From assembly GCA_027482685.1 (NCBI GenBank), contig JAIXVU010000003.1:38065-102064 (forward strand): a stretch of 64,000 bases of DNA, written 5' to 3'. This document shows positions 1 to 62,374 of this stretch, in pieces. The stretch comes from a bacterium. GTDB lineage: Bacteria; Patescibacteriota; Minisyncoccia; Phycocordibacterales; UBA5272. How positions within the stretch are numbered: the stretch's first letter is position 1; the number at the start of each line of letters is the position of its first letter. Both the position numbers and the translations under genes were made by a program. The notes beneath the pieces were generated by a model. It was given only the letters and a program-made list of their open reading frames with translations. It was not told where the DNA came from and did no database searches.

Positions 1-90
1 TAGCCAAGACAATTTTCTTAGTTGTATTGATTTAGTTTCAAGAATTTTTAGTCGAATTTTTAACTAATTACTAATAACCATTAACCAACC

Positions 91-1473: not shown

Positions 1474-1522
1474 GTATTGCATTATACTATTAACTATTAA
1501 CCACTAACTATTGACCATTCCT

Positions 1523-2056: not shown

Positions 2057-2100
2057 AACAATCGTATTTTCTGATATGTGCAGTAATTCAATTTCTGCAC

Positions 2101-2140
2101 TTAACCATTAACTATCAACCATTAACTATTAATCGTTCCC
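2101..2140 (+). promoter_or_regulatory. AT-rich tandem motif TTAACCATTAACTATCAACCATTAACTATTAA directly upstream of tig ATG (family I leader/promoter motif)
   Basis: same (A)ACYAWTAAC tandem motif immediately precedes ATG of nusA (61-90), ppa (1487-1520), clpP (7401-7420), rpsG (30901-30925), fusA (31966-31995), rpsS (42529-42548), rplN (44640-44678), rpsN (49231-49260) and efp (62113-62150, minus). Confidence 0.5.
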
Positions 2141-7090: not shown

Positions 7091-7426
7091 GACGGCCTCC
7101 GTAAATGTTGATGATGTCGCAAGTCGTAGACTTGCGATAGCTCAATGTACAAATGTTAGGAATGTCATTACAACACCCCCAACAACTGGTACTATTATAG
7201 CATAAAAAGTATATTTTGTCAATAAATACAAGCCTTATAATATATGGTATATTTCGAGTATCTACTGAACATCAGAAACGATAGAATAACCGTTATATAT
7301 CATAGTAAAGCCTGTATTTGCATTCCATTTTTGATTTTGAAATAGTTGTTACATTAATCATCAACCCTAGTAAGCCCGAGAAAGATGTAACTTCTAGTAC
7401 CTATTAACCATTAACTATTCACTCTC

Positions 7427-8015: not shown

Positions 8016-9530
8016 ATGAGCCCTATTCTTCTTGTAGAAGGAGTTATCGTTTTTGCTGTAGGTATTATAGGCGGATACATTACCCGCCAGTACGTTGCTG
8101 CATCACGTCGTCGAGGTATAGAAGTAGAGATAGAAGAAAAGCTTTTAGTTGCAAGACGTGAGGCTAATAAATTAGAAGAAGAAGCGCTTGCAAAAGTTAC
8201 CACTCTTCGTGACGAGCTTAAGAAGCAAGAAGATCGCATTCAAAAGCAAGAAGAACGCTTAGACATACGAGAGAGCGAACTTGCTAAACGTGCAACAGAA
8301 CTTGCCGAAGAGCAATCTAAAATCCGTACCTCTCTTCAAACTCTTGAACAAAAAGAACACAATATTTCCGCTCGTGAAAAAAGTGTTACTAAAGAATTAG
8401 AACAAGTAGCTAGGCTAACGGGTGATGAGGCACGTGAGATTTTACTCCGCAAAATAACGCGTGAACATGAAGAAGATTTCACTTCGCGCGCTCTCAAGCT
8501 CGCACGTGATGGTGAAGTAAAACTCGAAGAGAAAGCGCGAGATATTTTAGTGAGCAGTATTTATCGTATTGCAAATGGTCCAATTGCGCAGTTTATGACT
8601 TCCACTGTGCTTATTGATGACGAAGAGATAAAAGGAAAAGTTATAGGTAAAGAAGGTCGTAATATCAAGACCTTTGAGCGTATGTCAGGTGTTGAAGTTC
8701 TTATCGATGAAGTTCCTAACGGTATTGTGCTTTCATGTTTTGACCCTGTGAGACGTGCAATTGCAAAGAATGCACTTGAGATGCTAATCAAAGACGGCCG
8801 TATCCAACCAGTAAAGATTGAAGAGTATCTCGAGAAAGCCAAGAAAGATATCGGACTCTTTATGAAAAAGAAAGGCGAAGAAGCAGTCCTTGCATGTGGA
8901 TTACTTTCTATACCAGAGGAGCTTATTCCAATAATCGGACGACTATACTTTCGTACGAGTTACGGGCAGAATGTTCTAGATCATTCTATTGAGATGGCGC
9001 ATATTGCAGGAGTACTCGCACAAGAGCTTGGAGCGGACGTGCATGTTGCAAAGGCAGGAGCGCTATTACATGATATTGGTAAGGCGGTTGACCATGAGAT
9101 ACAAGGAACGCATGTTGAGATAGGACGGAAGATTCTCATGAAGTATGGCGTGGATGAGCGTGTGATACTTGCGATGCAAGCACATCATGAGGAATATCCG
9201 TATGAAACAATCGAATCTATATTAGTCCAAGTAGCAGATGCGATAAGCGGTGGAAGGCCGGGAGCGCGCAGAGATACAGTAGACAGGTATATTAAGCGTC
9301 TTGAGGACCTAGAAGCCCTTGCGATGTCATTTGCGGGCATTGAGCGTGTGTATGCACTACAAGCAGGCCGTGAGATACGCGTGTTCGTCTCCCCTCTACT
9401 TGTGAATGATATTGAAGCACGTAATCTGGCACGAACTATTGCCCTTCGTGTTGAGCAGGAGTTGCGTTTCCCTGGGGAAATTAAAATCCATGTGATTCGC
9501 GAAAGTCGCGTCATCGAATTTGCCCGCTAG
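8016..9530 (+). CDS. rny: ribonuclease Y
   Basis: N-terminal TM helix, coiled-coil, KH domain (KGKVIGKEGRNIK), HD domain (LLHDIGKAVDHE). Confidence 0.9.
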   Translation: MSPILLVEGVIVFAVGIIGGYITRQYVAASRRRGIEVEIEEKLLVARREANKLEEEALAKVTTLRDELKKQEDRIQKQEERLDIRESELAKRATELAEEQSKIRTSLQTLEQKEHNISAREKSVTKELEQVARLTGDEAREILLRKITREHEEDFTSRALKLARDGEVKLEEKARDILVSSIYRIANGPIAQFMTSTVLIDDEEIKGKVIGKEGRNIKTFERMSGVEVLIDEVPNGIVLSCFDPVRRAIAKNALEMLIKDGRIQPVKIEEYLEKAKKDIGLFMKKKGEEAVLACGLLSIPEELIPIIGRLYFRTSYGQNVLDHSIEMAHIAGVLAQELGADVHVAKAGALLHDIGKAVDHEIQGTHVEIGRKILMKYGVDERVILAMQAHHEEYPYETIESILVQVADAISGGRPGARRDTVDRYIKRLEDLEALAMSFAGIERVYALQAGREIRVFVSPLLVNDIEARNLARTIALRVEQELRFPGEIKIHVIRESRVIEFAR

Positions 9531-10994: not shown

Positions 10995-11660
10995 CTAGGC
11001 TGCTTGTCTTTGTTCCTCCATCGAAGAATCATTTGCTGCGGATGTTATCGACTTAATATGACTTTGGTAGCCATCAATAACCTTTTGGAGGCAGGATATC
11101 TTTTCCTCTTTTATACGAAGATTATTCTGTAATTCCGTATCATTGTTAATATTACGATGCTGTTTCAATGTCTGTATACCAGATAGTAAACTATTTTTAT
11201 GAGTGTATAGCCTTTCCAGACTTTCTTCTGATCCGTTTTCTGCTTCTTTTCCAAGTTTTTCATAAATAGTACGAGCACCATCAATGTCTATACTATCGGA
11301 GATTGTATCTAGATCTTCAAGTTGTTCACTAGCGGTTTCCCATTCACTCGTATCAACTCCCTCTAGCTCCAATCCTTCTTGTATTCTCTTAAAGTGCTCA
11401 GTCTTAACCTTCCCAAGTAAGGTCTTTAGACTATATACGCTGTCAGGTTTAGTAACTTCCAGCTTATCAATAAGCATAGGCAGTGCTTCTTCTAAAAATT
11501 CAAGATAGTCTGTTTCTGTGTTTGCTGTATCTACAGATAGTAAAGCGTTAGCAACTCGTTCTGCTTCCGGGCCGAGCATCCTTTTAACAGTTTCGAGTGT
11601 AAGATTTTTTGGCTCAATACTTGTAGGTTGTGGTGCTGATGATGGATTAAATGGTGGCAT
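10995..11660 (-). CDS. hypothetical acidic protein
   Basis: ORF only; probable start MPPFNPSS; a decayed partial paralog lies immediately downstream (10640-10990, minus strand). Confidence 0.45.
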   Translation of the reverse strand: MPPFNPSSAPQPTSIEPKNLTLETVKRMLGPEAERVANALLSVDTANTETDYLEFLEEALPMLIDKLEVTKPDSVYSLKTLLGKVKTEHFKRIQEGLELEGVDTSEWETASEQLEDLDTISDSIDIDGARTIYEKLGKEAENGSEESLERLYTHKNSLLSGIQTLKQHRNINNDTELQNNLRIKEEKISCLQKVIDGYQSHIKSITSAANDSSMEEQRQAA

Positions 11661-13207: not shown

Positions 13208-13627
13208 AATTATACACTATTTTTATAACGTTTCACGTGAAACGAATGTCCTATTGTCTTTTCTGTGTCTATAAGCGAATCCCCATAATAGCCTTATAGA
13301 ATAGCTGTTTTTAGTTAATATAGGAAATAACGGACTAAAATAATTGACTTTTGGAGTGTCTCTTATACCCACTACCCACAGGGTTATCCCCATTTCTGTC
13401 TATTAAGACTTTTACCACAATCTGCATCTGTAATATTGATAAAAGGAACCAAGAGGATCATGTCTATGAACAGTGTAGCCCTATTACTTCTCAATGTAAA
13501 ATCGTTGTGTTAGAATAGGGGACAATGCGGTGTTGGTTTAGTGGCCTTAGCCCGACCAATAGTCGTCAGGCGTACACGTTTGTATATATATTAGGACCAT
13601 ACATATTAACGTTACTCTATAATAATT

Positions 13628-14283: not shown

Positions 14284-15789
14284 ATGACAGAAATATATAC
14301 ACCAAAAGAAATAACAATACCAAAAGAAGTAATGATGGTCATTGCTGTGCTTCAAAATGCCAAATTCGAGGCGTTTCTTGTTGGTGGTTGTGTGCGTGAT
14401 ATCTTTATGAATGTTAAGCCAAAAGATTATGATATAACGACGAACGCCACCCCAGAAGAAATAATCGCTTTATTTCCAAAGACTTTTTATGAAAATAGCT
14501 ATGGCACTGTTGGCGTGGTGACATGTGGTGAAGATTTGGGAACTGTGTGTAGCGATGAAACAGTCAAAATAGTAGAGGTTACGCCATATCGTCTAGAAAG
14601 TATGTATTCTGATAATCGTCACCCAGATATAGTTTCATGGAGTACAAAGATAGAGGATGACCTTAAACGTCGAGATCTTACAGTAAATGCTATTGCGTAT
14701 AACCCGGTTACAGGCGAGGTGGTAGATCCGTTTCATGGGAAACAAGATATTACTGAAAAGATTATACGTGCAGTTGGGGATCCTAACATCCGTTTTGGTG
14801 AGGATGCGTTACGTCTTATGCGTGCAGTGCGACTTATGTCACAACTTGATTTTGATATTGATCCCGTTACACGTGAAAGTATTCGTAAAAACGCAGATTT
14901 ACTCAATAATGTTTCACGTGAAAGGATTCGGGAAGAGTTTATTAAGATTATAATGACAAAGTATCCAATGCGGGGGCTGGTTGTGATGAAAGAGCTTGGG
15001 TTATTGGACTCAGTTATTCCAGAACTTGAAAGGGGGATAGGGGTTATGCAGAATCAGGCACACAGATATGATGTTTGGGAACATAATTTACGAACATTAC
15101 AACATGCAGCTGATAAGGATTGGCCGTTACACGTTAGACTTTCTGCTATTTTCCATGATATTTCAAAGCCAGAAACAAGACGCTTTTCACGTGAAAAGGG
15201 GGATTATACGTTTTATGGACATGATGTTGTTGGTGGACGTGTTACACGTGAAATCATGACGCGGTTAAAGTTCCCTAAAGAGTTAATAGAAAAAGTCTCA
15301 ATGTTCGTGCGGTGGCATATGTTCTTTTCTGATACTGAACAGATTACATTATCTGCGGTGAGGCGATTAATAACCAACGTCGGTAAAGATAATATATGGG
15401 ATCTTATTGATTTACGTATCTGCGATCGTATAGGCACAGGGCGACCGAAAGAAGAACCTTATAGATTAAGGATGTATCAGTCGATGGTGGAACAGGCACT
15501 TAAAGACCCGATATCACTTAAAATGCTCAAAACTGATGGGAAACGGATCATGGACGTTACACAAGAAACGCCTGGACCAAAGATTGGGTATGTTTTGCAC
15601 GCGTTATTCGATGAAGTGCTTGAAAATCCTGAAAAAAATACTGTGGAATACCTTGATGAGCGTGCGGTGTTTCTCATGAAACTCTCAATTGACGAACTAC
15701 AAGCTCTCGGAGAAGCTGGAAAAGAGGAAATGGAGACAAAAAATGAAGAGCAGGTGAAGGATATCCGTAAACAGTTCAAGGTAAAATAG
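14284..15789 (+). CDS. cca: CCA-adding tRNA nucleotidyltransferase with HD domain
   Basis: AFLVGGCVRDIFMNVKPKDYDITT polymerase-beta head; HD domain (IFHDISKPE...GHDVVGG). Confidence 0.85.
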   Translation: MTEIYTPKEITIPKEVMMVIAVLQNAKFEAFLVGGCVRDIFMNVKPKDYDITTNATPEEIIALFPKTFYENSYGTVGVVTCGEDLGTVCSDETVKIVEVTPYRLESMYSDNRHPDIVSWSTKIEDDLKRRDLTVNAIAYNPVTGEVVDPFHGKQDITEKIIRAVGDPNIRFGEDALRLMRAVRLMSQLDFDIDPVTRESIRKNADLLNNVSRERIREEFIKIIMTKYPMRGLVVMKELGLLDSVIPELERGIGVMQNQAHRYDVWEHNLRTLQHAADKDWPLHVRLSAIFHDISKPETRRFSREKGDYTFYGHDVVGGRVTREIMTRLKFPKELIEKVSMFVRWHMFFSDTEQITLSAVRRLITNVGKDNIWDLIDLRICDRIGTGRPKEEPYRLRMYQSMVEQALKDPISLKMLKTDGKRIMDVTQETPGPKIGYVLHALFDEVLENPEKNTVEYLDERAVFLMKLSIDELQALGEAGKEEMETKNEEQVKDIRKQFKVK

Positions 15790-17957: not shown

Positions 17958-18374
17958 TCACTTCAGGCAGATCTTGAGGTTTGCAGCAACTCTTTTTATT
18001 ACCTCATCCGTATCCCACCTGAAGAGACTGATGAGAAGCCCTCCTAGTATTGGCGCCCCAAGAAAGTAGGCTCCATAGAGTGATTCAGTCACTGAGAGAT
18101 GTGTTATCACCCTGCTCTTGAACTCCTCACTTGCCTCCTTAGAGATGGGTTCATGGCGTGCTACGAACTCTCTGAATCCGTGGGGGATAGTAGTCTTGGT
18201 CACTTGCCCCTTCATGGGAGTGAGCTCAGGGCAGAGCAGTTGTCGTGCCACCGTATCGTTTGCAGACACCGCCATGCGCGGCGACTGTTCGGCCGCCTTG
18301 ACTTCCGTGATGGAGGTGAAGAGGACGAGCAGGAAGATGATCGCACCCTCTAGGATTCGGCGAGAGCCTCTCAT
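17958..18374 (-). CDS. hypothetical secreted/membrane protein (GC-rich)
   Basis: N-terminal signal/TM (AIIFLLVLFTSITEVKA), C-terminal hydrophobic segment; terminator hairpin GCGGTGCC-GTCAG-GCACCGC at 17921-17940. Confidence 0.45.
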   Translation of the reverse strand: MRGSRRILEGAIIFLLVLFTSITEVKAAEQSPRMAVSANDTVARQLLCPELTPMKGQVTKTTIPHGFREFVARHEPISKEASEEFKSRVITHLSVTESLYGAYFLGAPILGGLLISLFRWDTDEVIKRVAANLKICLK

Positions 18375-18583: not shown

Positions 18584-19135
18584 ATGGAACTAGAGATACA
18601 ATACAGAGTGAGTACGAGAGCGAAGCGGTTGCGGGTGGCGGTACATCATGATGGAAGAGTGGTGGTGACGAAGCCACAAAAGATGAGTGTAAAAATTGCA
18701 GAGCAATTTTTACACAACAAGTACAGATGGATAGAAGAGAAAGTTGCATACTTCATAAAGAGGAAGGAGCGAGTATTACGAGAAACACCGCAGGTGTTTC
18801 TCGTGGGAACATACGAAGAGTACAAAGAGCAAGCGAGAGCGCTCGTGCATGCGAGATTGCAACATTATAATGAGATGTACAATTTCACCTATCATGCGGT
18901 TGCAATACGTAATCAGAAATCCAGGTGGGGTAGTTGCTCAAAGAAGGGGAACTTGAATTTTAGTTACAAACTCGCACTACTCCCACCACATCTTGCTGAC
19001 TATATTATTGTGCATGAGCTCTGTCATCTCAGGGAGTTTAATCACTCGGCACAATTTTGGCAGTTGGTAGCGTATGCGATACCAGAATATAAAAAGATGA
19101 GGAAGGAGTTAAGAGGGATAGCGCTTAGGAATTAG
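18584..19135 (+). CDS. YgjP/DUF45-family zinc metallopeptidase (M48-like)
   Basis: HELCHLREFNHSAQFWQLV HExxH motif typical of DUF45. Confidence 0.7.
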   Translation: MELEIQYRVSTRAKRLRVAVHHDGRVVVTKPQKMSVKIAEQFLHNKYRWIEEKVAYFIKRKERVLRETPQVFLVGTYEEYKEQARALVHARLQHYNEMYNFTYHAVAIRNQKSRWGSCSKKGNLNFSYKLALLPPHLADYIIVHELCHLREFNHSAQFWQLVAYAIPEYKKMRKELRGIALRN

Positions 19136-19194
19136 TTTAATGGTTAATAGTTAATAGTGGGGATACATGAAGGGGCGCCGTAGGCGCCCCTTAT

Positions 19195-27144: not shown

Positions 27145-27348
27145 AGGGGTAGATAATTAGGATTTAGGGACTAGGCGGGTAGGACTTTTTCAAGAACTGT
27201 TAGCTTTGTCGAATGTGTGTAATCTTAACACCTTTTCTATGTTTTTGCAAACTTTTAAGCAGGCAGGATAGAGGTAGGCGTAAATGTTTAATGATTTCTA
27301 GCCCCTAGTCTCTAAATATCTAACCCCTAGTTATGGTATTATAGTTTC

Positions 27349-30686: not shown

Positions 30687-30929
30687 TACATACAGTGCAT
30701 ACAAAATTCATCCGAGGGTCGCGTTTTGCTATTTATAGTATTTTATTGTAGTATAGAAAACACTCGTTTAGAGTAACGAAAGCGCTACCTTATTAAACAT
30801 TTCACGGAGTACCATAGCTTTCTGGGAACGAACGTGAGACAAACTAGTAATTAGTTAATAATTAATAGTCGAAACAAAAGCTTTGCTTTTGTTTCCCAAA
30901 AACCATTAACCATTAACCGTTAATCAAAA

Positions 30930-31876: not shown

Positions 31877-32003
31877 TCATTTTTTTTATGATAGTATTGT
31901 AACTACTGCACAAGCGGTTTTTTATTTTCTATTGATGCGTTTTGCGAAGCAAAACGCATCAAATAAACCATTAACTATTAACCATTAACTATCAATTATC
32001 ACC

Positions 32004-38124: not shown

Positions 38125-38348
38125 TATTTACTTTGCATAATACAAATGTTACATATCATAGTGCTTGCGAATATTGTATCTGTGTGATATGATTGCAGGA
38201 CTGACTTAGCATCTACTGTTCTTGCTTGGCTAAGTAGTGCAATTATTATTCGTGTTATATTAGTTTCTCTTTATTATATTTAATAGTCCAATACCCCTAT
38301 AACATTTTGTTTACAAAATGTACGGGCGGCAAGACCCAACAAAAACAT

Positions 38349-39545: not shown

Positions 39546-39586
39546 ATCTAAGTGTTCTTTCGAAAGAAAGAACGTAATTACCAAGC

Positions 39587-42477: not shown

Positions 42478-42548
42478 TATAAAGTAAATCTCTAAAAAGT
42501 CTTTACTTTCAATAAAAATCTGATATAATTAAGCCCTATTAACCAACC

Positions 42549-44628: not shown

Positions 44629-44681
44629 TAGCACTTTTGCATCAACTAATAACTAATTACTAACAACTAACTACAACACCT

Positions 44682-45062
44682 ATGATACAAGCAGGCACAA
44701 ATGTAAAAATAACAGATAACTCAGGCGGAAAATTCGGCCGTGTTTTCAAAGTGCTTGGTGGCAGTAAGCGTCGTTATGCATCACTTTGCGATATGGTGGT
44801 GCTTTCAGTTAAGGTTGCAGAACCTCGTAAGCAGACTAAGAAGAAAGATATTGTATACGGTGTAGTAGTTCGTACCACTAAGCAAGTACGTCGTTCTGAT
44901 GGATCATATATCTCATTTGATGATAATGCAGTTGTTATTGTAGATAAGACTAAGAAAGAACCGAAAGCAGGACGTGTGTTCGGGCCTATCCCACGTGAAC
45001 TTTCACAGTCAGGAGTTGATGGGTTTAAGAAAATTGCATCTCTTGCACCTGAGATAATTTAA
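44682..45062 (+). CDS. rplN: 50S ribosomal protein L14
   Basis: MIQAGTNVKITDNSGGK start typical of uL14. Confidence 0.93.
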   Translation: MIQAGTNVKITDNSGGKFGRVFKVLGGSKRRYASLCDMVVLSVKVAEPRKQTKKKDIVYGVVVRTTKQVRRSDGSYISFDDNAVVIVDKTKKEPKAGRVFGPIPRELSQSGVDGFKKIASLAPEII

Positions 45063-45552: not shown

Positions 45553-46050
45553 ATGGATATCAAAGGTGGAACAAATCATCCCCCAATGTATCTCCGAAAT
45601 GCTCTTATGGCGGTTGATCGGGCTATCCTTGGGCTAGCTCGTAACGACTGCTATCAAGAGGGGAGGTGCTTCGAAGGGGTTCTACGTCTTCTTGCGGATA
45701 GCGATACGCTTCTAGCAGAACTTGATAGCGAAGAGAGATATCAAAAAGTTGTGGTTAAAGATGCTATCCTTCGTGCATTCCGAGCACTTCACAGAGACCA
45801 GGATCTTGTACCACGACGTGTACGGAATTTCTTAAGGAGAGAAATTGCGGCATTTGTCTGTGAAAGATTTACAAATGCACGTGATAGAGAAGTACACCCC
45901 GAGCTCTTGGCCATCCTCACCGAACTATCCTTAGACAAGCATGCACCAAGAAAATTTATTTCCCCTCCAGAAATTCATACACGTCGCAAGGATGACCTGA
46001 TTAGATTCCTTAAAGAAATGAAAGAAGCTCTCAAGCTACAGCTTACGTAA
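45553..46050 (+). CDS. hypothetical Arg-rich protein inserted between rplX and rplE (GC-richer than neighbours)
   Basis: ORF only; no recognisable motif; bounded by terminator upstream and non-coding spacer downstream. Confidence 0.4.
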   Translation: MDIKGGTNHPPMYLRNALMAVDRAILGLARNDCYQEGRCFEGVLRLLADSDTLLAELDSEERYQKVVVKDAILRAFRALHRDQDLVPRRVRNFLRREIAAFVCERFTNARDREVHPELLAILTELSLDKHAPRKFISPPEIHTRRKDDLIRFLKEMKEALKLQLT

Positions 46051-46842: not shown

Positions 46843-47118
46843 ATTGTTTATCTGCTTTGTTAAGAGAAGTTTCTCTCAGCCAGTGTACAATGGGTACGTT
46901 TCTACCGAAAACTTTCTTTCTTCACATAGCTAAAATAATTTTTGATCTTTTTGATTAAGAAGCTATATTTTCCTTTGTTCTATTGAAGTTTCAATTAGGG
47001 TAATAAAAAGAGGATGTCGCAAACATCCTCTTTTTATTTGTCATTTCTACATGAAGTAGGGAGTTTTGAAGACAGGCAACACTTGACAAGTTTATATAAA
47101 TACTGTAGGATAGGGCCC

Positions 47119-48504
47119 ATGAAAACAGGAATTAAAAACATCGTCATCGGGCTTAGTTTTTTGGGTATTTTTACTAGTTTTAGTGGTTTTGCACAAGCGG
47201 GGTATTTTAATACAACCCCAATTGAGCAGTGTGATGTTGTTATTGTAAGTAACCTATCTTTTGGTTCACGCAATCAAGATGTTCTTACTCTACAGCAGTT
47301 TCTAGCTCGCGCTGGGTACCTTCACGCTACTCCTAATGGGTACTTTGGGCATGGTACCAGATCTGCTGTACAGGCTTTTCAAGCTGACAACTACATTCGT
47401 CAGACAGGAACAGTGGGAGCTGAAACCCGTAATGCTCTAAATGAAAGACTTTGCGATGCACGGGTATCACGCTACTCATTTAACGATGATTACTATGATT
47501 ATGCGTCTGGGGTAACATATGTTGATGGATATGATCCATATGTAACTGTCGTATCTCCTACTCCTCAAATACCAGCCGTGTATGCAACTCCACAGGCAAA
47601 TATAGCAACTCGTAATACAAATGTCTCAGTTGCTACAAACAGAACTGCAGACATTACAAGTGGTTCAGTTGTCTCTCCTCTTGTTGCTTCTACTCAAACA
47701 AATTTTGGCAACCTTCCTTCTCCTGCTAGTGTTGATAGAACATCTATTGTCTTTAATCCAAGTATTGGTTATACAACTGTCATTACTCCAAAGGTGCAGT
47801 CATTAACTATCCTTACTCCGCTTTCATATACTGTATACAATGAAGGTGATACTGTGTCTCTCACATGGAGAACACAAGGACTATCACAAACACAGTTTGT
47901 AGTGCTTCTTGAAAATAAGAATACTCGTCAGAGTCGTACAGTTGCCGTTACATCTTCGATGAATGCCTCGTTTACTCTTACTAAGGATCTTCTTGATGCT
48001 GTATGTAATGGACCATGTGATGCTAATGCTCAAGCAGCATTTGGTATCGTTATTACTACTCCTGTTACTGATCTTGCGGGTACTGTAACGACTTTCAGAT
48101 CAACCCTTTCACCTATTGCAATTAAGCGTCCTTTTGCAGGGACTGGTATTGGGGCAGTATCTCTTAGTATTAAGAATCCTGTTGCTTCAAATGAAGTAGT
48201 TAAACTTTTCCTTAACTTACCTGGTATTAGTAATGTTGATGCGTATACTAACTATTCATTTAAGATTCGCGCAACATGTATTCCTGGTGTACAAGTGAGA
48301 CTAGGTGGCGTTGAATGTGGTCAAGACTTTATAATTCCAATCGGCGCTGTTTACTTCCAAAATCAAATTCCTGTAGCAATTAATAATACAACATGGTTCA
48401 GACAAGACGTTGCGTTTACCCTTACTGTTATAAATGCTCAGGGGCAAGTAGTGGGACAAGCAGAAACAAAGACTACAGTAAACGGCGCACCGTTTAGTTG
48501 GTAG
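47119..48504 (+). CDS. secreted protein with peptidoglycan-binding (PG_binding_1-like) domain and long Thr/Ser/Val-rich region
   Basis: signal peptide (IVIGLSFLGIFTSFSGFAQA); LTLQQFLARAGYL...GYFGHGTRSAVQAFQ...GTVGAETRNAL motif; terminator hairpin at 48524-48552. Confidence 0.55.
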   Translation: MKTGIKNIVIGLSFLGIFTSFSGFAQAGYFNTTPIEQCDVVIVSNLSFGSRNQDVLTLQQFLARAGYLHATPNGYFGHGTRSAVQAFQADNYIRQTGTVGAETRNALNERLCDARVSRYSFNDDYYDYASGVTYVDGYDPYVTVVSPTPQIPAVYATPQANIATRNTNVSVATNRTADITSGSVVSPLVASTQTNFGNLPSPASVDRTSIVFNPSIGYTTVITPKVQSLTILTPLSYTVYNEGDTVSLTWRTQGLSQTQFVVLLENKNTRQSRTVAVTSSMNASFTLTKDLLDAVCNGPCDANAQAAFGIVITTPVTDLAGTVTTFRSTLSPIAIKRPFAGTGIGAVSLSIKNPVASNEVVKLFLNLPGISNVDAYTNYSFKIRATCIPGVQVRLGGVECGQDFIIPIGAVYFQNQIPVAINNTTWFRQDVAFTLTVINAQGQVVGQAETKTTVNGAPFSW

Positions 48505-48565: not shown

Positions 48566-49003
48566 TTATGCAAGTGCTGTTTTAACAAGAAACATAACTG
48601 CCGTTACCGCACCAACTAGTAACGTTCCCCAAAGGATATCAACGATGACAATAGACCAAGGATATTCTTTGAATACTGCGAGATTGGTGAAGTCATAAAA
48701 TGCATATAGTACAAATCCCAGAAGCGCACCGTATAGAAATGCATTTAACGTCGTAGATGCACGAGATAGTGCAAAGACCCATATACCAAGTATTCCGACG
48801 ATATACACAAGGGGAATTGCGGGAAGGTAAGGCACAAGCGATCCTTCGACTATGTTTGCATGCGCTTTTAATCCGTCTAAGTAGAACGTTTTTGCGATTT
48901 TGGCTAGCCAGACATAGTCAAGAACAGTAAAAGTAATAATACCTGCAAGCGATGTGAGTATAATTGATATCATATATGTAAAGTGTAGCATACAAAGTAA
49001 CAT
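48566..49003 (-). CDS. DUF2177-like small membrane protein
   Basis: 4 TM segments; ORF only; start possibly at internal ATG (MISIIL). Confidence 0.45.
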   Translation of the reverse strand: MLLCMLHFTYMISIILTSLAGIITFTVLDYVWLAKIAKTFYLDGLKAHANIVEGSLVPYLPAIPLVYIVGILGIWVFALSRASTTLNAFLYGALLGFVLYAFYDFTNLAVFKEYPWSIVIVDILWGTLLVGAVTAVMFLVKTALA

Positions 49004-49271
49004 AGTTCTGATTGTAGCTGTGAACGGTATGTCTTTTTTTGATGAAGATAAGTGAGATGCTAAAAGTGTGCAGTTCTTGTTATTTCTTATATTTTATGGT
49101 ATAGTTAATAAGCTTTCTGTAATCCGTGTATCTCCGTAAGTATTAGAGACTTCTCTATTATTTACGTTCATATCACGCTGATATTCAGAGAGTTAGTACT
49201 TATGTAGGAGTATTGCAGTTTTGCATTTCCTTAATTACTAATTACCAATTACTAATTACAGTATAAATCGA

Positions 49272-49457
49272 ATGGCAAAAACATCAGTTATTGCGCGAGC
49301 AAACAAAAAGCCAAAATTCTCGTCACGAATAGTTAACCGATGCTTCAAGTGTGGTCGAAAGCACGGGTTCATGCGAGATTTCGGTCTTTGTCGTATCTGT
49401 TTTCGTGAACTCGCAAACGAGGGAATGATTCCAGGGGTGACAAAGTCATCATGGTAG
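49272..49457 (+). CDS. rpsN: 30S ribosomal protein S14 (zinc-binding type Z)
   Basis: [25 protein letters not shown] CxxC...CxxC. Confidence 0.92.
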
Positions 49458-52061: not shown

Positions 52062-52124
52062 AAACTAATTACTAGTTTTTAGTAATTAGTTACTAGTGAA
52101 ATACTAAAAACAAGTTACAAAATA

Positions 52125-52170: not shown

Positions 52171-52773
52171 ATGTATTCTCTTACCAAAGACGAGCTACAA
52201 TTTTTAAAGAAACTTACTACTCCGATCAAAATCCAAGACTATCTTGATAGTATAGATTTCAATTACGAGAAGAACGGCGAGACCTGTATGTCCCCACGCC
52301 GCGTAATAAAAGAGGGTAAGGCACATTGTATAGAAGGGGCGTTGCTTGCAGCTCTTGCTCTTATGGTTAACGGTGAGCGACCACTACTTCTTAATTTGAA
52401 AGTAAGACATGATGATTATGATCATGTTGTAGCACTCTATAAATGTAACGGATATTGGGGGGCAATCAGTAAGACCGCACACTCAGTCTTGCGCTTTCGC
52501 GATCCGGTATACAAGAGTGTGCGAGAACTTGCAATGTCATATTTTCACGAGTATTTTTTGGTAAGTGGTGGTGAAAAAACCATGCTTGGGTATTCAAAGC
52601 CTATTAATCTTAAAAGATACGGAACAAGTTGGATAACAGAAGAGAAAGATCTTTGGACTATCGCAGAGAAGATATTTGATGCACCGATTACAAAAGTGAT
52701 TCCAAAGGGAAATGAAAAGTATATTAAGCCTGCGACAGAACTTGAACGGAAAGCCTCGGACATAAAAAGCTAA
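52171..52773 (+). CDS. putative transglutaminase-like/papain-fold cysteine peptidase-type protein
   Basis: GKAHCIEGALLAALALMVNG ... DYDHVVALYKCNGYWGAISK resembles Cys...His...Asp core of transglutaminase-like superfamily (eye alignment only). Confidence 0.35.
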   Translation: MYSLTKDELQFLKKLTTPIKIQDYLDSIDFNYEKNGETCMSPRRVIKEGKAHCIEGALLAALALMVNGERPLLLNLKVRHDDYDHVVALYKCNGYWGAISKTAHSVLRFRDPVYKSVRELAMSYFHEYFLVSGGEKTMLGYSKPINLKRYGTSWITEEKDLWTIAEKIFDAPITKVIPKGNEKYIKPATELERKASDIKS

Positions 52774-52793
52774 TAAGGTTATATACTACATAC

Positions 52794-53579
52794 ATGTATT
52801 TTGAATCTAGTAAAAATAACAATAGTCCAATAATTTGTAACGTGCCTCATTCCGGGACTCTGATACCAGCAGAATATGAATCTGATTTTATTCTACAGGA
52901 GGACGATTTAGAGCAAGAGATTTTGTATATGGCGGATAATTATACTGACGAGCTATACAAGGAATTATTAAATATTTCAAGTTATGTACAATCTACCGTT
53001 AGTAGAATTTTGGTTGATATAGAACGATTTGAAGATGAAGAGGATGAGCCAATGTCAAAAGTCGGCATGTCAGCTTTTTACACAATGACAAGTGAAGGTG
53101 AGCTGCTCAGAACCATTACAGATGAAAGGAGGATTGAGCTTGAGAAAATATATAAAAATTATCATGACACTTTCACTGATTTAGTTACTGTTGCGCTTTC
53201 TAATTATGATACGGCTATTATTGTAGACTGTCATTCGTTTGCATCCATCCCTAGAATATACGAAAGCGATAAAGATGGAGACCGTCCAGATATTTGTATT
53301 GGGGTAGATGAGTACCATACACCAAAAGAGTTAGTAGAAAGGCTCCAAACTAACTTTGGAGAACTCGGATATAGTGTAAAAGTTAACAGTCCTTTTGCAG
53401 GGAGTATTGTACCTGCTCTATATTATCAAAAAGATATAAGAGTGATTTCAGTGATGATTGAAGTCAATAGAAAACTCTATATAGATGAACTAACATTTCA
53501 AAAATCAAAAAATTTTTCTGAAGTCTCAAGGGCTATTTCTCGAGCGGTTATAAAAAGTTTGAACGAGTTTATAAAATAA
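52794..53579 (+). CDS. N-formylglutamate amidohydrolase (FGase) family protein
   Basis: ICNVPHSGTLIP ... IIVDCHSF signature motifs of PF05013 family. Confidence 0.55.
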   Translation: MYFESSKNNNSPIICNVPHSGTLIPAEYESDFILQEDDLEQEILYMADNYTDELYKELLNISSYVQSTVSRILVDIERFEDEEDEPMSKVGMSAFYTMTSEGELLRTITDERRIELEKIYKNYHDTFTDLVTVALSNYDTAIIVDCHSFASIPRIYESDKDGDRPDICIGVDEYHTPKELVERLQTNFGELGYSVKVNSPFAGSIVPALYYQKDIRVISVMIEVNRKLYIDELTFQKSKNFSEVSRAISRAVIKSLNEFIK

Positions 53580-53580
53580 T

Positions 53581-54043
53581 ATGGGACAAGAACAGCTATC
53601 GGGTCCAGAAAAAATATTTACGAGTGTATCCCCAAAAGAATTTATCAATCAAAGAGATAGATTGCGAGAAGATTTGTTTGCATTTCTTACCCCGCTCACA
53701 GAAGAAGATTATGTAGCAAAAAAGACAAAGTTGTTTTTATCACAGGATTTACAATCAGGTTTCGGTGTTAATCCAGATGGAGAGCTTATATCTGTATTTG
53801 CTTTAGAAAAACAAAGAGGAAGGCTTCTTGTTGCTGAGGCAAGAAATCAGGGGGGCTAAATATTTAAGTTGCATGGGTGACTATTTACTAGAGCTATATT
53901 CTGAGTTTGATTTTTCCCCAGTAGAAATTTTGAAATGGGATAACAGGTTTACCCCTAAAAATTGGAATTATGAGAGATTTGGAGCTCCAAATATTTATGA
54001 AATGAGATTAAAAAATCCTTATGCGGATAAATTTGAGGGGTAA
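53581..54043 (+). pseudogene. hypothetical gene split by frameshift in a G6 homopolymer tract (two overlapping ORFs 53581-53859 and 53828-54043)
   Basis: frame 1 ends ...NQGG* at CAGGGGGGCTAA (G-run 53850-53855); deleting one G fuses to frame 2 (AKYLSCMGDYLL...) giving a ~154-aa product. Confidence 0.5.
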
Positions 54044-56339: not shown

Positions 56340-56387
56340 TATTAGTTTTTTCTAAAACCTAACCCCTAATCTCTAAACCCTAGTCTT

Positions 56388-57204: not shown

Positions 57205-59931
57205 ATGAATTCTACATTTAGTACCCCCGAAGAAGAGATAGCATTTTTACGTAGTCAAATATCTACAAAGATAGAAAAGTCAAAAGGTTTTGAGGGGCGA
57301 TTTAATGAAACTGATCACGCGCGCGAAGTTATTCGTGATTATAAAGAGACGAAGCTTGAACAAGTTATTCCTGTTGCTTCCCAGATCACAGAAGGTGAGA
57401 AGCATCGCTTGCTTGAGTGGCTCGCGCCCAAGGATACTGATCAGCAAGTGAGCATGCTATCACAGATTGCTGCAGAGAAAGGACTCAAAAATGCTTTTTC
57501 TGTTGCGGAGAATTTAAATGATCCACAGGTAGAAGACGATTTTGATAGATTTCTCGTACAGTATCTCATCTCAGGTCATGAGTTTAAGAATGATCTTTCA
57601 AAAGATGAATGGAAAGCGCTACATATGAAGCTCTTTGAAGTGATACTTCCAACCGCTCTTGAGGGTCAGGTCAAACAAGCAAAAGAGATGATGGCTCTTA
57701 TGGAACAGTGGTATGCGTCCATGCAAGCACTCGCTAGTGATGCGTCTAACAAGGAGAAAAATTATTATTCTCTTGAGCTAAGTGTTTCTAACAATACTAC
57801 CGTGACGTCATTTTATTGTGCGGTGCATGTGGACTATGCAGCGTTATTTGAAAAAGTTGTACTTGGAGTATTCCCAACTGCAAAAGTTATAGAGCAAAAA
57901 GAAGATTATAATATATTCCATAATCACGCTATAACAGCAGCATCATATGCTGTACCATCTACCCATCCATCGCTTCCGATTACAACATACAACGAAGTAG
58001 AGGGCGACCCGATGGCGCTCATCATTTCATCATTTATTAAAATAGCAAAGGATAAGGAAGGTCTCGCACTTCAGATACTTATCCGTCCATCAGGTGATGT
58101 GTTTGCCCGTAAATACGGTGAGATGTTAGAAGACCTTCGTAAAGGTGAGACATTTAAGCGTGTTGTTGATAAACAAAGCTTTGTTAAAGAGGCATTCTTT
58201 CAAATAGGGGAAGCGCTCTTTTCTAGTCCAAAAAAAGATGACGATACTGCACATAAAGAGGAAAAGAAAACTACGTTTATGGACGAAAACGCTACAAAGT
58301 TCGTCCAAGAGAAATTATCTAAGACTATCCTTGAGGCCAATATCAGAATAGTGGCATCTGCTGAGTCGTTACCAAGAGTGCAAAAGATACGAGATGACTT
58401 AGAAGCATCGTTTGCACAATTTACTAAAGTCCACGGTAATAGCATCACCTGGAAAGAGGTAGAAGGGAATAAACAAAAGGCACTACTTCACCGTTTCTCA
58501 TATCGTCTCTGGAATGATGATGAGAGTTACCCGCTTAACGTCGCAGAACTTGCTTCTCTCTTCCATTTCCCAATGTTATCTAAGGATGTTGCGAACGTGA
58601 AAGAGCAGACATATACTAAGAGCCCAGCGCCTATCGACCTCTCGCCAAACGGTATTTTACTTGGTGTTAATACTACTCGTGGGGAGGCAACAGAGATACA
58701 CTATGATAGAGAGGATCGTGTGCGTCATATGTATGTTATCGGACAGACAGGAACTGGTAAGACAGTGCTCTTGAAGAATATGATTGTCCAAGATATCAAA
58801 AATGGTGACGGTTGTTGTTTCATCGATCCGCATGGTAGCGATATTGAAGATATTTTGGCAAATATTCCACCAGAACGTGCCGGAGATGTTATCTATTTTG
58901 ACCCGTCATATATGCCACGACCGATGGGGCTTAATATGCTTGAGTATGATAGAACTAAACCTGAAACAAAAACGTTTGTTGTTAACGAGCTCTTGGGTAT
59001 TTTTGATAAGTTATTTGATATGAAGACCTCCGGCGGTCCAGGGTTTGAGCAATACTTCCGTAACGCAACACTTCTTGTGATGGAGCACCCAGAATCGGGT
59101 AATACACTCCTTGAGATTGCCCGTATTTTTTCTGATAAAGATTTTAGAGACTATAAGTTATCAAAATGTAAGAATCCTCTCATCCTACAATTCTGGCAAA
59201 ATGCTGAGAAGACATCAGGTGATCAAGGTCTACAAAATTGGACACAGTATGTTAACAGTAAGTTCGATGTCTTTCTCTCAAATGATATTATGCGTCCAGT
59301 TATCGCACAGGAGCGTAGTGCGTTTAACTTCCGAGAGATTATGGATACTAAGAAAATACTTTTAGTTAATCTTGCGAAAGGGCGGTTGGGAGATAAGAAC
59401 GCAGAGCTACTCGGCCTCATCATTGTTGGTAAGTTTTCTCAAGCCGCACTTTCTCGTGTTGATCAGCCGGATGTTAGCAAGCGACCAGACTTCTATCTCT
59501 ACATAGATGAGTTCCAGAATGTTACAACACCAGCAATTGCAAGCATTTTATCAGAAGCACGTAAGTACCGACTTTCCCTTAACATTGCGCACCAGTACAT
59601 CTCGCAGTTAACAGAGGATATTAAAGGTGCTGTGTTTGGTAACGTTGGATCTATGGCAGTATTTCGTATATCGCCAGAGGATGCGCAGTACCTTGAGTCT
59701 AAGTTCGCTCCGACATTTACAGCATCAGATATTATGAAAATAGAGAATAGACATGCGTATCTAAGCCTCCTTGCCAATGGTACCCCGAGGAAACCTTTTG
59801 ATATTGACGTGCTCCCACCACCAAAAGGAGAGATTGCGCGTATCAGTCAGCTTAAGGAGTTAAGTTATCTTACTTATGGTCGCCCAGCAGATGAGGTGAA
59901 CGAAGAAATCATGAGAAAGTATAATATGTAG
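57205..59931 (+). CDS. large soluble protein: ~480-aa unknown N-terminal region + HerA/TraD/VirD4-like (DUF87-type) P-loop ATPase domain
   Basis: Walker A YVIGQTGTGKTVLLKNMI, Walker B FYLYIDEFQNV, CFIDPHGSD; no N-terminal TM helices. Confidence 0.6.
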   Translation: MNSTFSTPEEEIAFLRSQISTKIEKSKGFEGRFNETDHAREVIRDYKETKLEQVIPVASQITEGEKHRLLEWLAPKDTDQQVSMLSQIAAEKGLKNAFSVAENLNDPQVEDDFDRFLVQYLISGHEFKNDLSKDEWKALHMKLFEVILPTALEGQVKQAKEMMALMEQWYASMQALASDASNKEKNYYSLELSVSNNTTVTSFYCAVHVDYAALFEKVVLGVFPTAKVIEQKEDYNIFHNHAITAASYAVPSTHPSLPITTYNEVEGDPMALIISSFIKIAKDKEGLALQILIRPSGDVFARKYGEMLEDLRKGETFKRVVDKQSFVKEAFFQIGEALFSSPKKDDDTAHKEEKKTTFMDENATKFVQEKLSKTILEANIRIVASAESLPRVQKIRDDLEASFAQFTKVHGNSITWKEVEGNKQKALLHRFSYRLWNDDESYPLNVAELASLFHFPMLSKDVANVKEQTYTKSPAPIDLSPNGILLGVNTTRGEATEIHYDREDRVRHMYVIGQTGTGKTVLLKNMIVQDIKNGDGCCFIDPHGSDIEDILANIPPERAGDVIYFDPSYMPRPMGLNMLEYDRTKPETKTFVVNELLGIFDKLFDMKTSGGPGFEQYFRNATLLVMEHPESGNTLLEIARIFSDKDFRDYKLSKCKNPLILQFWQNAEKTSGDQGLQNWTQYVNSKFDVFLSNDIMRPVIAQERSAFNFREIMDTKKILLVNLAKGRLGDKNAELLGLIIVGKFSQAALSRVDQPDVSKRPDFYLYIDEFQNVTTPAIASILSEARKYRLSLNIAHQYISQLTEDIKGAVFGNVGSMAVFRISPEDAQYLESKFAPTFTASDIMKIENRHAYLSLLANGTPRKPFDIDVLPPPKGEIARISQLKELSYLTYGRPADEVNEEIMRKYNM

Positions 59932-61530: not shown

Positions 61531-62112
61531 TTATTTTGTGCGTTCCACGTACTCGCCAGTTTCAGTGTTCACGATAATTTTTTCACCAGCTTCTATGAAA
61601 AGGGGGGTTGTAACCTGTGCTCCTGTTTCAAGGGTTACTAACTTACCTCCACCGCTTGCGGTATTGCCTTTGATTGCAGGAGGCGCTTCTTTTACTTCAA
61701 ATGTCATCTTAATTGGAAGTGTTACACCGATAAACTTCTCCTCGTCATCTAATGTGAATATTTTTACATCAACGAGAGTATTTTCTTTTAAGTATTTTGT
61801 TTGGTCACCGAGAATTTCACCGCTTATCTCAAATCTCTTTGCACGGTCTTTTGGATCGCAGAACCAGTACTCACCTTTATTAGCAAACAGGAACATTGCT
61901 TCACGTCGTGATATCTCTGCTTCTTCTGCAGTATCAGATGCATGAAATGTTCCTGGAACAACTTTTCCATTAAGCATATTACGCATACGGACTTGGTTCT
62001 GCGGTTTACGTTTTTGTGTACGAGCTACATGAGACTCGAGAATCTCAAAAGGGACATCGTCAACTAGTATAAACTTTCGTGGTTTAATTTCATCATAATC
62101 AAGTGTTGCCAT
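61531..62112 (-). CDS. efp: elongation factor P family protein (divergent N-terminal loop)
   Basis: C-terminal GNTASGGGKLVTLETGAQVTTPLFIEAGEKIIVNTETGEYVERTK strongly EF-P-like; the canonical KPGKG loop is replaced by TQKRKPQNQ. Confidence 0.75.
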   Translation of the reverse strand: MATLDYDEIKPRKFILVDDVPFEILESHVARTQKRKPQNQVRMRNMLNGKVVPGTFHASDTAEEAEISRREAMFLFANKGEYWFCDPKDRAKRFEISGEILGDQTKYLKENTLVDVKIFTLDDEEKFIGVTLPIKMTFEVKEAPPAIKGNTASGGGKLVTLETGAQVTTPLFIEAGEKIIVNTETGEYVERTK

Positions 62113-62374
62113 AGAGATAGTAATTAGTTATTGATAATTAGTTATTCGTAAATGCAGTGTGCAAAAAAATAACATCAAGTTACAGAATTGTAACAAAAAA
62201 GACTCAATTTTTCAATCTCTCTCTATATATATAGAACGGATGAGAGAATATATTTGTAAATAAGAAGCAGGTATAAAGTTAAGAATAATCTCAAAAGGGA
62301 TTCTATATAAATTGACGCATTAAATATATTATTGTAGTGTATATCTACTAGTAGTTCTTTTTTGGAGAAATCAA

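Follow-up and report, generated by a model that had tools for sequence, protein, structure and literature searches.

Heptamer repeat arrays next to the start codons of translation genes in a Paceibacterota-like bacterium: putative leaders for Shine-Dalgarno-independent initiation

Heptamer arrays and start codons in the window

The 64,000-nucleotide (nt) stretch of contig JAIXVU010000003.1 considered here, referred to as the window, contains short tandem arrays of a G-poor heptamer (approximately AACTAAT or AACCATT, in 2-6 copies), many of which sit directly upstream of start codons (Table 1). Ten genes carry such an array 0-12 nt 5′ of their ATG, i.e., nusA, ppa, tig, clpP, rpsG, fusA, rpsS, rplN, rpsN, and efp, with Pfam domains bearing out the identity of 10/10. 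At nusA, bases 61-90 read TAACTAATTACTAATAACCATTAACCAACC and the ATG at 91 follows without a gap; at ppa, the correct start codon is an ATG (1523) in place of the TTG at 1511. An initial annotation of this DNA had reported two AT-rich motifs in tandem near the ATG of these ten genes. The tandem repeat and the gene assignments were borne out; the two motifs, AACCATT/AACTATT and AACTAAT/TACTAAT, are not separate, however, but period-7 variants of one repeat. Period-7 or period-14 repeats were called by Tandem Repeats Finder at 1481-1517, 2101-2132, 19137-19158, 30901-30923, 31966-31992, 44643-44682, 49232-49259, and 56352-56386. At rpsS the motif is present as annotated, but in only ~2 units (42534-42548), and the reverse copy placed between convergent genes is likewise present, with its coordinates corrected to 19130-19158 and further ones detected at 30844-30868 and 52063-52091. 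The array at 19130-19158 is an orphan, located between the stop codon of a YgjP-like gene and the shared terminator hairpin of the convergent genes (19170-19192). A second unit family, CTAAACC/CTAACCC, is found before map and 5′ of the −10 box of an M50-peptidase gene, the ATG of which (27349) is of the leaderless type, 6 nt from an extended −10 element at 27332-27342; the array copy at 27298-27331 is thus probably promoter DNA that is not transcribed into mRNA.

Individual 9-mers were examined as the possible signal and rejected, as neither is convincingly beyond chance: allowing ≤1 mismatch, ACCATTAAC occurs 28 times in the window against 17.7 expected, and AACTAATTA 31 times against 34. The three-unit pattern TAACNNNTWACNNNTWAC, also with ≤1 mismatch, was scored against dinucleotide shuffles of the window (n = 100) and gave 24 matches versus 1.97 ± 1.4, a count reached in 0/100 shuffles. 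It is therefore the tandem arrangement that constitutes the real signal. Moreover, 10/13 window arrays finish ≤15 nt 5′ of a same-strand start codon (binomial P = 3e-11, against a background in which 5.1% of intergenic position-and-strand slots qualify).

The arrays are G-poor and not strictly G-free, with 0-2 G each (one in those of ppa, tig, and rpsG, and two in that of rpsN). In five array genes, G-free runs of 29-47 nt reach the ATG, whereas in other genes such runs have a median of 5 nt and a maximum of 21 nt; the long G-free arrays carry stop codons in all three frames. All of the array genes (10/10) belong to translation or protein homeostasis (Fisher P = 3e-4, calculated with a rough class count), and they are essential housekeeping genes, unlike the contingency genes of phase-variable loci.

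An assembly artefact is not the source of the arrays: contigs from two sequencing runs carry sequence identical to the window, and arrays of this layout are found in 80 related species as well. Copy-number polymorphism was sought by comparing two Logan metagenome contigs bearing the S7 protein (L001 and L002) with the window, and none was found, all being identical. A scan of the window with the Rfam 15 covariance models at the gathering score returned four tRNAs only, with no match at the arrays.

Table 1. Heptamer arrays and associated features of the window, with sites of predicted periodic hairpins in relatives (contig handle before the coordinates)
Feature	Position	Strand	Remarks
Heptamer array AACTAAT TACTAAT AACCATT AACCAAC C	61-90	+	Adjoins nusA ATG 91; G-free for 36 nt, stops in three frames
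Heptamer array, 5 units, ACTATTA type	1486-1522	+	ppa ATG 1523; TATACT −10-like box overlaps 5′ edge
Hairpin	2078-2100	+	Directly 5′ of tig array; read from sequence
Heptamer array ACCATTA/ACTATCA, 5 units	2101-2140	+	tig ATG 2141
Heptamer array, 3-4 units	7400-7426	+	clpP ATG 7427
Orphan array	19130-19158	−	Directly after stop codon of YgjP-like gene (+); no start codon downstream
Second-family array (CTAGCCC … CTAACCC CTAGT)	27298-27331	+	5′ of extended −10 TGgTATTAT, 27332-27342
Reverse-oriented array, ACTAATT/ATTATTA type on minus strand	30844-30868	−	5′ of rpsG hairpin
Hairpin between reverse and forward arrays, rpsG leader	30871-30895	+	
Heptamer array, AACCATT x3 then degenerate	30901-30929	+	Adjoins rpsG ATG 30930
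fusA leader hairpin, 12 bp, GAA loop	31934-31960	+	Compensatory changes in relatives
Heptamer array, 5 units	31966-32003	+	Adjoins fusA ATG 32004; G-free for 47 nt
Sigma-70-type promoter TTTACT-16-TATAAT with TG, conserved	42502-42529	+	5′ of rpsS motif
Two-unit motif CCCTATTAACCAACC	42534-42548	+	Predicted rpsS leader 12-13 nt; ATG 42549
Heptamer array, AACTAAT type, 5 units	44643-44681	+	rplN ATG 44682
Heptamer array TAATTAC x4	49231-49259	+	12 nt 5′ of rpsN ATG 49272; rpsN = 49272-49457
Palindrome: ACTAATT unit and its complement	52063-52091		Directly 3′ of rplO stop codon
Second-family array CTAAAAC CTAACCC CTAATCT CTAAACC CTAGTCT	56352-56387	+	map ATG 56388
Heptamer array AACTAAT TATCAAT AACTAAT TACTATC TCT	62113-62146	−	Adjoins efp ATG; efp = 61531-62112, minus
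Periodic-hairpin sites in relatives	L027:1117-1195; L039:779-870; L073:3324-3400; L073:16046-16129; L080:12593-12656; L076:14107-14162		Just 5′ of rpsG, rpsJ, rplE, rpsH, rplN

Lineage, start-site signals, and transcript context

The window comes from a Paceibacterota/Nomurabacteria-like (Parcubacteria) genome: a scan of genome contigs with L2 recovered relatives from 80 species, 67-91% identical, which bear the labels Paceibacterota, Nomurabacteria, or Parcubacteria. Its Parcubacteria traits are (i) a ribosomal-protein cluster without L30, (ii) interruption of this cluster by foreign genes, and (iii) a Lys/Ala-rich tail, located at the C-terminus of S19. The genes that interrupt the S10-spc cluster (45553-46050, 47014-48504, 48566-49003 on the minus strand, and 52171-53859) include those for a PG_binding_1 protein, an N-formylglutamate amidohydrolase, and hypothetical proteins.

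Start-site statistics are based on 899 pooled gene starts, taken from the window together with 42 close relatives; this set includes orthologues, such that its counts are not fully independent. G is depleted to 8-10% at −13 to −3; with the 0-2 G per array, and with no GGAG or AGGA upstream of the ten array genes, this upholds the earlier observation that Shine-Dalgarno (SD) sequences are missing here. A pyrimidine (T or C) occupies position −1 in 89% of starts, and ACTAA is 4.8-fold enriched at −25 to −1 relative to −60 to −36 (119 versus 25). TATACT shows a peak (24 cases) at a distance of exactly 6 nt from the ATG, an arrangement that is the signature of leaderless mRNAs. Window starts at 14284, 15947, 36303, 52171, 52794, 54112, 55734, 57205, and 60727, among others, have TATACT or TATAAT 6-9 nt before the ATG, and genes outside operons mostly look leaderless. 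AGGAG(A) at 5-7 nt spacing occurs before ~30 accessory or hypothetical genes in L005-L042 and never before core translation genes; such genes may be recent acquisitions, or may indicate a working anti-SD. Canonical SD sequences in the window precede the starts at 18374 (minus strand), 62375, and 62999. The canonical 3′ tail of 16S rRNA is GAUCACCUCCUU; a search of the window and 80 related loci for 16S or 23S rRNA, in which an anti-SD could be read, found neither present. An anti-SD motif has been detected in only 48% of Parcubacteria, and the bS1 protein of candidate-phyla-radiation bacteria has 3-4 domains (Tsurumaki et al. 2022, PMC9297842).

The location of the arrays within transcripts is best seen at three genes. 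Upstream of rpsS, a TTTACT-16/17-TATAAT promoter is conserved in dozens of relatives and is followed by a G-poor segment of 13-20 nt (in the window, …CCCTATTAACCAACC) and then by the ATG; this promoter lies 5′ of the motif, which is therefore a short leader and not a −10 box. At rpsG, a conserved promoter-like box, TTGTAGTAT, precedes a structured leader with three helices (30746-30843, box included), five pairs with compensatory changes across six species, and no Rfam match, making it a candidate for a ribosomal-protein (possibly S7) autoregulatory leader. Between this leader and the ATG, a module consisting of reverse array, hairpin, and forward array (30844-30929) is inserted in the window. 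At fusA, a TGnTAGTAT box is located ~100 nt 5′ of the start. Next comes a hairpin of 12 bp, closed by a GAA loop, the pairing of which is kept despite sequence changes in four relatives, and the array lies 5-9 nt 3′ of this hairpin. For rpsG and fusA, the promoter-like boxes and structured leaders thus lie 100-190 nt 5′ of the ATG with the array in between. Given these upstream boxes and leader structures at rpsS, rpsG, and fusA, the arrays are 5′-untranslated-region (5′-UTR) or intercistronic RNA.

Besides fusA, a hairpin followed by a short G-poor leader precedes tig (2078-2100), rpsJ (39554-39573), and tuf (38303-38320); these hairpins could be 3′-protective, processing, or standby structures. 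A gene for RNase Y (with RNase_Y_N, KH, and HD domains) lies at 8016-9530, directly after clpP, which would matter should mRNAs be processed where hairpin and array meet. Over −15 to +6, array genes have a mean predicted unpaired probability of 0.66, compared to 0.505 in the remaining genes and 0.45 ± 0.12 at random ATGs.

Arrays in related species

A census of the window and the 80 related loci (1.36 Mb; ≥3 units, 85% identity) yielded 87 arrays of period 7, 41 of period 6, 6 of period 8, and ≤4 for each of periods 9-15. In the relatives, arrays lie on the sense strand 0-20 nt 5′ of rpsJ, rplC, rplB, rpsC, rplV, rplN, rplX, rplE, rpsN, rpsH, rplO, secY, rpsG, and fusA, with array-to-start distances of −2 to 16 nt for most of 81 arrays. 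The set of array-bearing genes varies between species, and orthologous sites without repeats have non-repetitive G-free A/C/U leaders instead (e.g., the fusA leader of L024 and the tuf leaders). On the sense strand, G is rarer than C in 59 arrays and more frequent in 17; the reverse (G-containing) arrays that were inspected are separated from the real start by a G-poor, A/C-rich spacer of about 10-15 nt or more.

The unit itself drifts, with variants such as ATTAACT, ACTAATT, AACTAAA, ACTAGAA, AGCTACC, CCAATAG, CCTAAAC, and CTAACGA. Nonetheless, a CTA core is present in 40/57 non-redundant units versus 14.2 expected upon permutation of the letters within each unit (z = 8.1), with TAG and TAA likewise enriched and TCA avoided; the CTA-anchored logo reads A-A-C-T-A-A-Y, and the best-conserved cores are at −15 and −22. 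The arrays are also in register with the start codon. The core C falls at −8 (+7n) in 21/44 arrays and at −9 in 8/44 (chi-square, calculated by hand, of ~46 at 6 degrees of freedom), with phase 3 being modal for 10/16 different genes; of the window arrays, five share the modal phase, four are two bases off, and that of clpP fits neither. Two units from one genome resemble each other slightly more than two from different genomes do (1.96 versus 2.44 mismatches; permutation P = 0.002).

Units containing stop codons number 57/81 against 38.6 expected, and all three frames are stopped in 38/81 arrays. A three-frame stop cassette was rejected as the primary function, as only these 38/81 arrays would qualify, units such as AGCTACC and AACTACA have no stops, and CTA fits the units better than TAA/TAG does. 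A MITE- or REP-like mobile element, suggested by the hairpins and the GTAG/CTAC-like cores, was likewise discarded; copies are unlike in sequence and length, without terminal repeats or target duplications. The resemblance to the NusB/NusE boxA (CUCUUUAACAA) is ruled out by the variation of the unit between species. In one relative (L018), a forward array before rpsC (11583-11610) and a near-perfectly complementary reverse array before rplX (13401-13427) lie 1.8 kb apart and bracket S3-L16-L29-S17-L14; these could pair over a long range in the polycistronic RNA or form an inverted repeat at the DNA level.

The closest parallel comes from the TAACTGA heptamer direct repeats of marine Beggiatoaceae (Maribeggiatoa), some Cyanobacteria, and Bacteroidetes (MacGregor 2015, Front Microbiol 6:1397, PMC4679880). 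Those sets have 2-6 copies, point toward the start codon in 147/170 cases, with the largest class ending 1 nt upstream, and lack an SD site in ~90%; their sites include fusA, L3, S4, S1, S21, and pnp, as well as positions internal to ribosomal-protein operons, and their function has been unexplained since 2015, with a translational role and S1-, Csp-, or CsrA-like binders proposed (PMC4679880). Both share the 7-nt unit, the 2-6 tandem copies, the forward orientation ending a few nt before starts, the lack of a canonical SD between repeat and start, the stops in forward frames, and the placement before fusA and inside ribosomal-protein operons (rpsG, fusA, rpsS, rplN, and rpsN in the window; rpsJ, rplC, rpsC, rplX, rplO, rplE, rpsH, and secY in relatives). 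They differ in several respects: (i) the window units TAACTAA, TAACTAT, and TAACCAT are 1-2 bases away from TAACTGA, others are TTACTAA and CTAAACC, and relative L031 alone has AAACTGA-type units close to it; (ii) the unit here is not uniform, varying from gene to gene and from species to species about an (A)ACTA core; (iii) the arrays here occur in a reduced bacterium of the candidate phyla radiation, in which most genes are leaderless and SD sites are nearly absent; (iv) translation genes are favoured, whereas Beggiatoa shows no functional pattern save for COG category J; and (v) the arrays here often have a hairpin before them or an inverted array as pairing partner, and their ATG register is documented. 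The window arrays are the same kind of element as the TAACTGA repeats and not the same sequence family. What is new is the occurrence of such arrays in a new phylum with a drifting unit; that heptamer elements of this kind exist, mechanistically unsolved, was already known. In the literature, no paper describing such arrays in candidate-phyla-radiation bacteria was found.

Scanning of metagenomes with ACYATTAACYATTAACYATTA returned at least 120 contigs (L083-L202) from many unrelated taxa, of which 94 arrays were examined; among the matches listed, an open reading frame starts within 30 nt in the forward direction for 22/94 and in the reverse direction for 5/94. Arrays of AACCATT/AACTATT are therefore widespread beyond the phylum, with a shared orientation bias. 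These contigs are of marine, freshwater, gut, and soil origin, with some arrays exceeding 15 units and some mixed with AACTGAC/TAACTGT.

Other known systems resemble the arrays in part. The short tandemly repeated heptanucleotides (STRR) of cyanobacteria are contiguous intergenic heptamers, and in Nostoc PCC 7120 heptamer repeats occur near start codons with unresolved effects (bioRxiv 10.1101/2022.06.06.494920). Like the window arrays, these are contiguous, in 3-4 or more copies, and intergenic near starts or promoters, with a transcriptional or translational effect suspected; unlike them, they use other units (e.g., TTTTGAA), occur in both orientations, are often long, and are tied to promoter access by NtcA/LexA. 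SD-independent enhancers include the T7 gene 10 epsilon (UUAACUUUA), the G-free omega leader of tobacco mosaic virus (TMV; ACAAUUAC plus CAA repeats), CA repeats, and A/U-rich S1-binding leaders. Such enhancers as T7 epsilon and TMV omega share with the arrays a G-poor, weakly structured A/C/U leader directly 5′ of the AUG, and the unit AUUAACU resembles epsilon; they are, however, single viral or engineered sequences with experimental support, as opposed to a genome-wide tandem family with a 7-nt period. Complementarity of some units to helix 17 of E. coli 16S rRNA (the epsilon target) or to the 790 loop is unconstrained, and helix 17 is not conserved. In Bacteroidia, the upstream signal is A-richness at set positions and not tandem repeats. 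As in the lineage examined here, core genes throughout Bacteroidia are without SD sites, and their initiation has been described as SD-blind (PMC7797042); the anti-SD in that group is, in contrast, present but sequestered.

Possible functions of the arrays

We tentatively favour an interpretation in which the arrays serve as slippage-born 5′ leaders, G-poor, decoy-free, and weakly structured, for SD-independent initiation at genes that would be unable to be leaderless or tightly coupled. This leader role is suggested by the adjacency to starts, the strand bias, the location in transcripts, the absence of SD sequences, the accessibility, the register, the gene class, the G-free leaders of orthologous sites without repeats, and the TAACTGA parallel. 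Replication slippage of a 7-nt unit (lineage consensus AACTAAY) would create the arrays and change their length. Those retained are on the sense strand, right before the AUG, at highly expressed genes with a genuine 5′-UTR or an extended spacer between cistrons, most other genes of the genome being leaderless or coupled to an upstream cistron. At such sites an array, with almost no G in it, has no SD, offers no decoy start (AUG, GUG, or UUG), and forms hardly any stable pairs; it usually brings stop codons in three frames and often lies just 3′ of a stable hairpin. The 30S subunits would enter this open stretch without anti-SD pairing, probably through contacts of bS1 or of the mRNA channel with the repeated (A)CUA(A) core, and would then use the first AUG, in register with the repeat. 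The initial annotation had raised a translation enhancer or standby site as an alternative to its promoter proposal, and in this it was plausibly right, with the sense strand, ATG adjacency and register, accessibility, and highly expressed genes all fitting.

Several observations weigh against this leader interpretation. A purely unstructured spacer leaves unexplained the conservation of CTA (40/57 versus 14.2), the avoidance of TCA, and the greater likeness of units within genomes (1.96 versus 2.44, P = 0.002). In relatives (L027, L039, twice in L073, L080, L030, and L076), predicted folds pair the forward array with an upstream inverted, G-containing one, giving a long periodic hairpin in which 5-bp helices alternate with 2x2 internal loops beneath a small hairpin cap; in the close pair L027/L039, both hairpin arms differ by one unit in parallel. 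Such paired forms would sequester most of the array and leave a G-poor spacer of 14-20 nt before the ATG. Copies also occur outside 5′-UTRs, at 19130-19158, at 52063-52091, and, 5′ of a −10 box, at 27298-27331. Given the paired arrays of relatives and the orphan, palindromic, and promoter-upstream copies of the window, a simple open landing pad cannot hold for every copy, and some may have a DNA-level or structural role. For the reverse and forward arrays at rpsG in the window, folding predicted no stable pairing; by eye, 5-6-bp A-U helices with 2-nt mismatches are possible there, as in relatives.

An alternative that we consider possible, if on the unlikely side, is that the arrays are mRNA sites for a sequence-specific oligomeric or multi-domain RNA-binding protein that recognises one CUA(A/G) core in every 7 nt and controls a translation regulon, up or down, with bS1, a cold-shock-domain or KH protein, or a HutP/TRAP-like ring as candidates. 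It would account for the persistence of the CTA core across otherwise divergent units (z = 8.1; logo A-A-C-T-A-A-Y), the fixed 7-nt spacing and ATG register with 2-6 units per site, the functionally coherent target set, and the slightly greater unit likeness within than between genomes, and S1, Csp, or CsrA-like binders were suggested for the TAACTGA repeats as well (MacGregor 2015, PMC4679880). It fits poorly with the considerable drift of the unit (AGCTACC, CCAATAG, ACTAGAA), with close relatives' orthologues doing without arrays, and with array-bearing genes that differ by species, which is unusual for a conserved regulon; cold-shock-domain genes were sought in the window and the 80 loci with none found, and no candidate was identified. 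On RNA, HutP recognises a trinucleotide core, UAG, that recurs every 7 nt with 4 spacer nt in between; the targets of both HutP and TRAP are single-operon leaders of the terminator/antiterminator type. The CUA core with a 7-nt period in the window arrays is similar to that of HutP; unlike for HutP/TRAP, neither a terminator/antiterminator alternative nor a cognate protein was found here. Were the partner instead an altered 16S 3′ tail or another exposed rRNA segment, such that the core forms a substitute SD/anti-SD pair with the loss of CCUCC, this would be in keeping with the preferred core position relative to the ATG, with the 4.8-fold ACTAA enrichment at −25 to −1 versus −60 to −36 (119 versus 25, 899 starts), and with the anti-SD being reported missing in about half of Parcubacteria (PMC9297842). 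We regard this as quite improbable, as AGGAG(A) at 5-7 nt before ~30 accessory genes suggests a working anti-SD, the best-conserved cores at −15 and −22 are farther upstream than an SD site, and the units vary between species beyond what an rRNA partner could follow. Considering protein and rRNA together, a sequence-specific partner is a serious rival in view of the CTA core, spacing, and register, though still a minority possibility. A more ambitious and unlikely version is that the (A)ACUAA array is a functional replacement for the ribosome-binding site, with a fixed AUG register and a dedicated partner, in a lineage largely without SD initiation and with its anti-SD perhaps lost or altered; the partner could be the reduced 3-4-domain bS1, another RNA-binding protein with a 7-nt footprint, or a changed rRNA segment. 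If so, the same solution would have arisen in, or been transferred among, Beggiatoaceae, Cyanobacteria, and Bacteroidetes, and copy number would be a slippage-driven tuning knob for the translation apparatus.

Explanations without any translational role appear weaker. That the arrays are tolerated, functionless microsatellites is decidedly unlikely; here, slippage would favour 7-nt units and purifying selection would leave them only in free transcribed spacers, as they would be harmful in coding sequence, in leaderless promoters, and, by starts, in G-rich or structured orientation, so that the leftovers precede operon-internal and leadered housekeeping genes. Fast turnover between species, variable copy number, the orphan, palindromic, and promoter-upstream copies (19130-19158, 52063-52091, and 27298-27331), and the presence of AACCATT/AACTATT arrays in at least 120 metagenome contigs with GC from 0.24 to 0.62 would suit it, and heptanucleotides are, according to Mrazek 2007 as cited in PMC4679880, the commonest long simple-sequence-repeat class in many bacteria. 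Filtering alone, however, cannot produce the enrichment at start codons (P = 3e-11), and the ATG register, the CTA core, and the repeated independent appearance before different ribosomal-protein genes are left unexplained, as is the forward bias of the metagenome arrays (22/94 versus 5/94 among the matches listed). The omega protein (ribbon-helix-helix) of plasmid pSM19035 binds contiguous 7-bp heptads, direct or inverted, in promoter operators on plasmids, and the window lineage likewise has contiguous 7-bp heptads in both orientations with a shared 5-bp core. The arrays could by this likeness be DNA operators on which a small repressor polymerises and blocks transcription of growth genes; three units would span 21 bp, or two helical turns, the copy at 27298-27331 overlaps a promoter, and the rpsS motif lies at about +1 to +13 of a conserved promoter. 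Such overlap of heptads and promoter is seen at 27298-27331 and possibly at rpsS and ppa, and not at rpsG, fusA, or the operon-internal arrays. The strong sense-strand bias, adjacency and register with the start codon in place of promoters, and the many arrays that are operon-internal or 100-190 nt 3′ of promoter-like boxes make operators improbable, and a cognate ribbon-helix-helix gene did not turn up in the 64-kb window, although no dedicated search was made; the global-regulator operator put forward in the initial annotation is less likely. That annotation had primarily proposed that TATTAA/TAATTA hexamers within the repeat act as a −10 box and that the mRNAs are leaderless or nearly so. 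The heavy reliance of the lineage on leaderless mRNAs, the rpsS leader of just ~12-13 nt, and TATACT at the 5′ edge of the ppa array are in its favour; near-leaderless holds for rpsS and not for the other array genes. As a source of −10 boxes the repeat is nevertheless highly improbable: read directly, its hexamers have no T at −7; a promoter scan found no sigma-70-type match with leaderless spacing within any array; conserved promoter-like boxes lie upstream of the arrays; the GC-richer units of relatives (AGCTACC, ACTAGAA, CCAATAG) cannot serve as −10 boxes; and the leaderless genes of this genome have a different and precise layout, with exactly 6 nt, and at most 9, between the end of TATACT or TATAAT and the ATG.

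Candidate-phyla-radiation bacteria, with their reduced ribosomes and reported anti-SD loss, are an extreme case of the choice of internal starts on leadered or polycistronic mRNAs without SD sequences. The arrays are sharply defined and repeatedly evolved, and they occupy the usual place of the ribosome-binding site before the genes with the highest expression; that an unrelated lineage of tiny genomes shares this anatomy with the TAACTGA repeats, with 80 species for comparison, argues for function. Even if merely tolerated as microsatellites, they would mark genes with true 5′-UTRs in a leaderless-dominated genome, and in either case they are a caution for gene callers that expect SD motifs. 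Separately, the gene at 57205-59931, downstream of map and with a leaderless-type promoter, encodes a 908-aa protein with weak Pfam matches to TrwB/TraG (type IV coupling protein).

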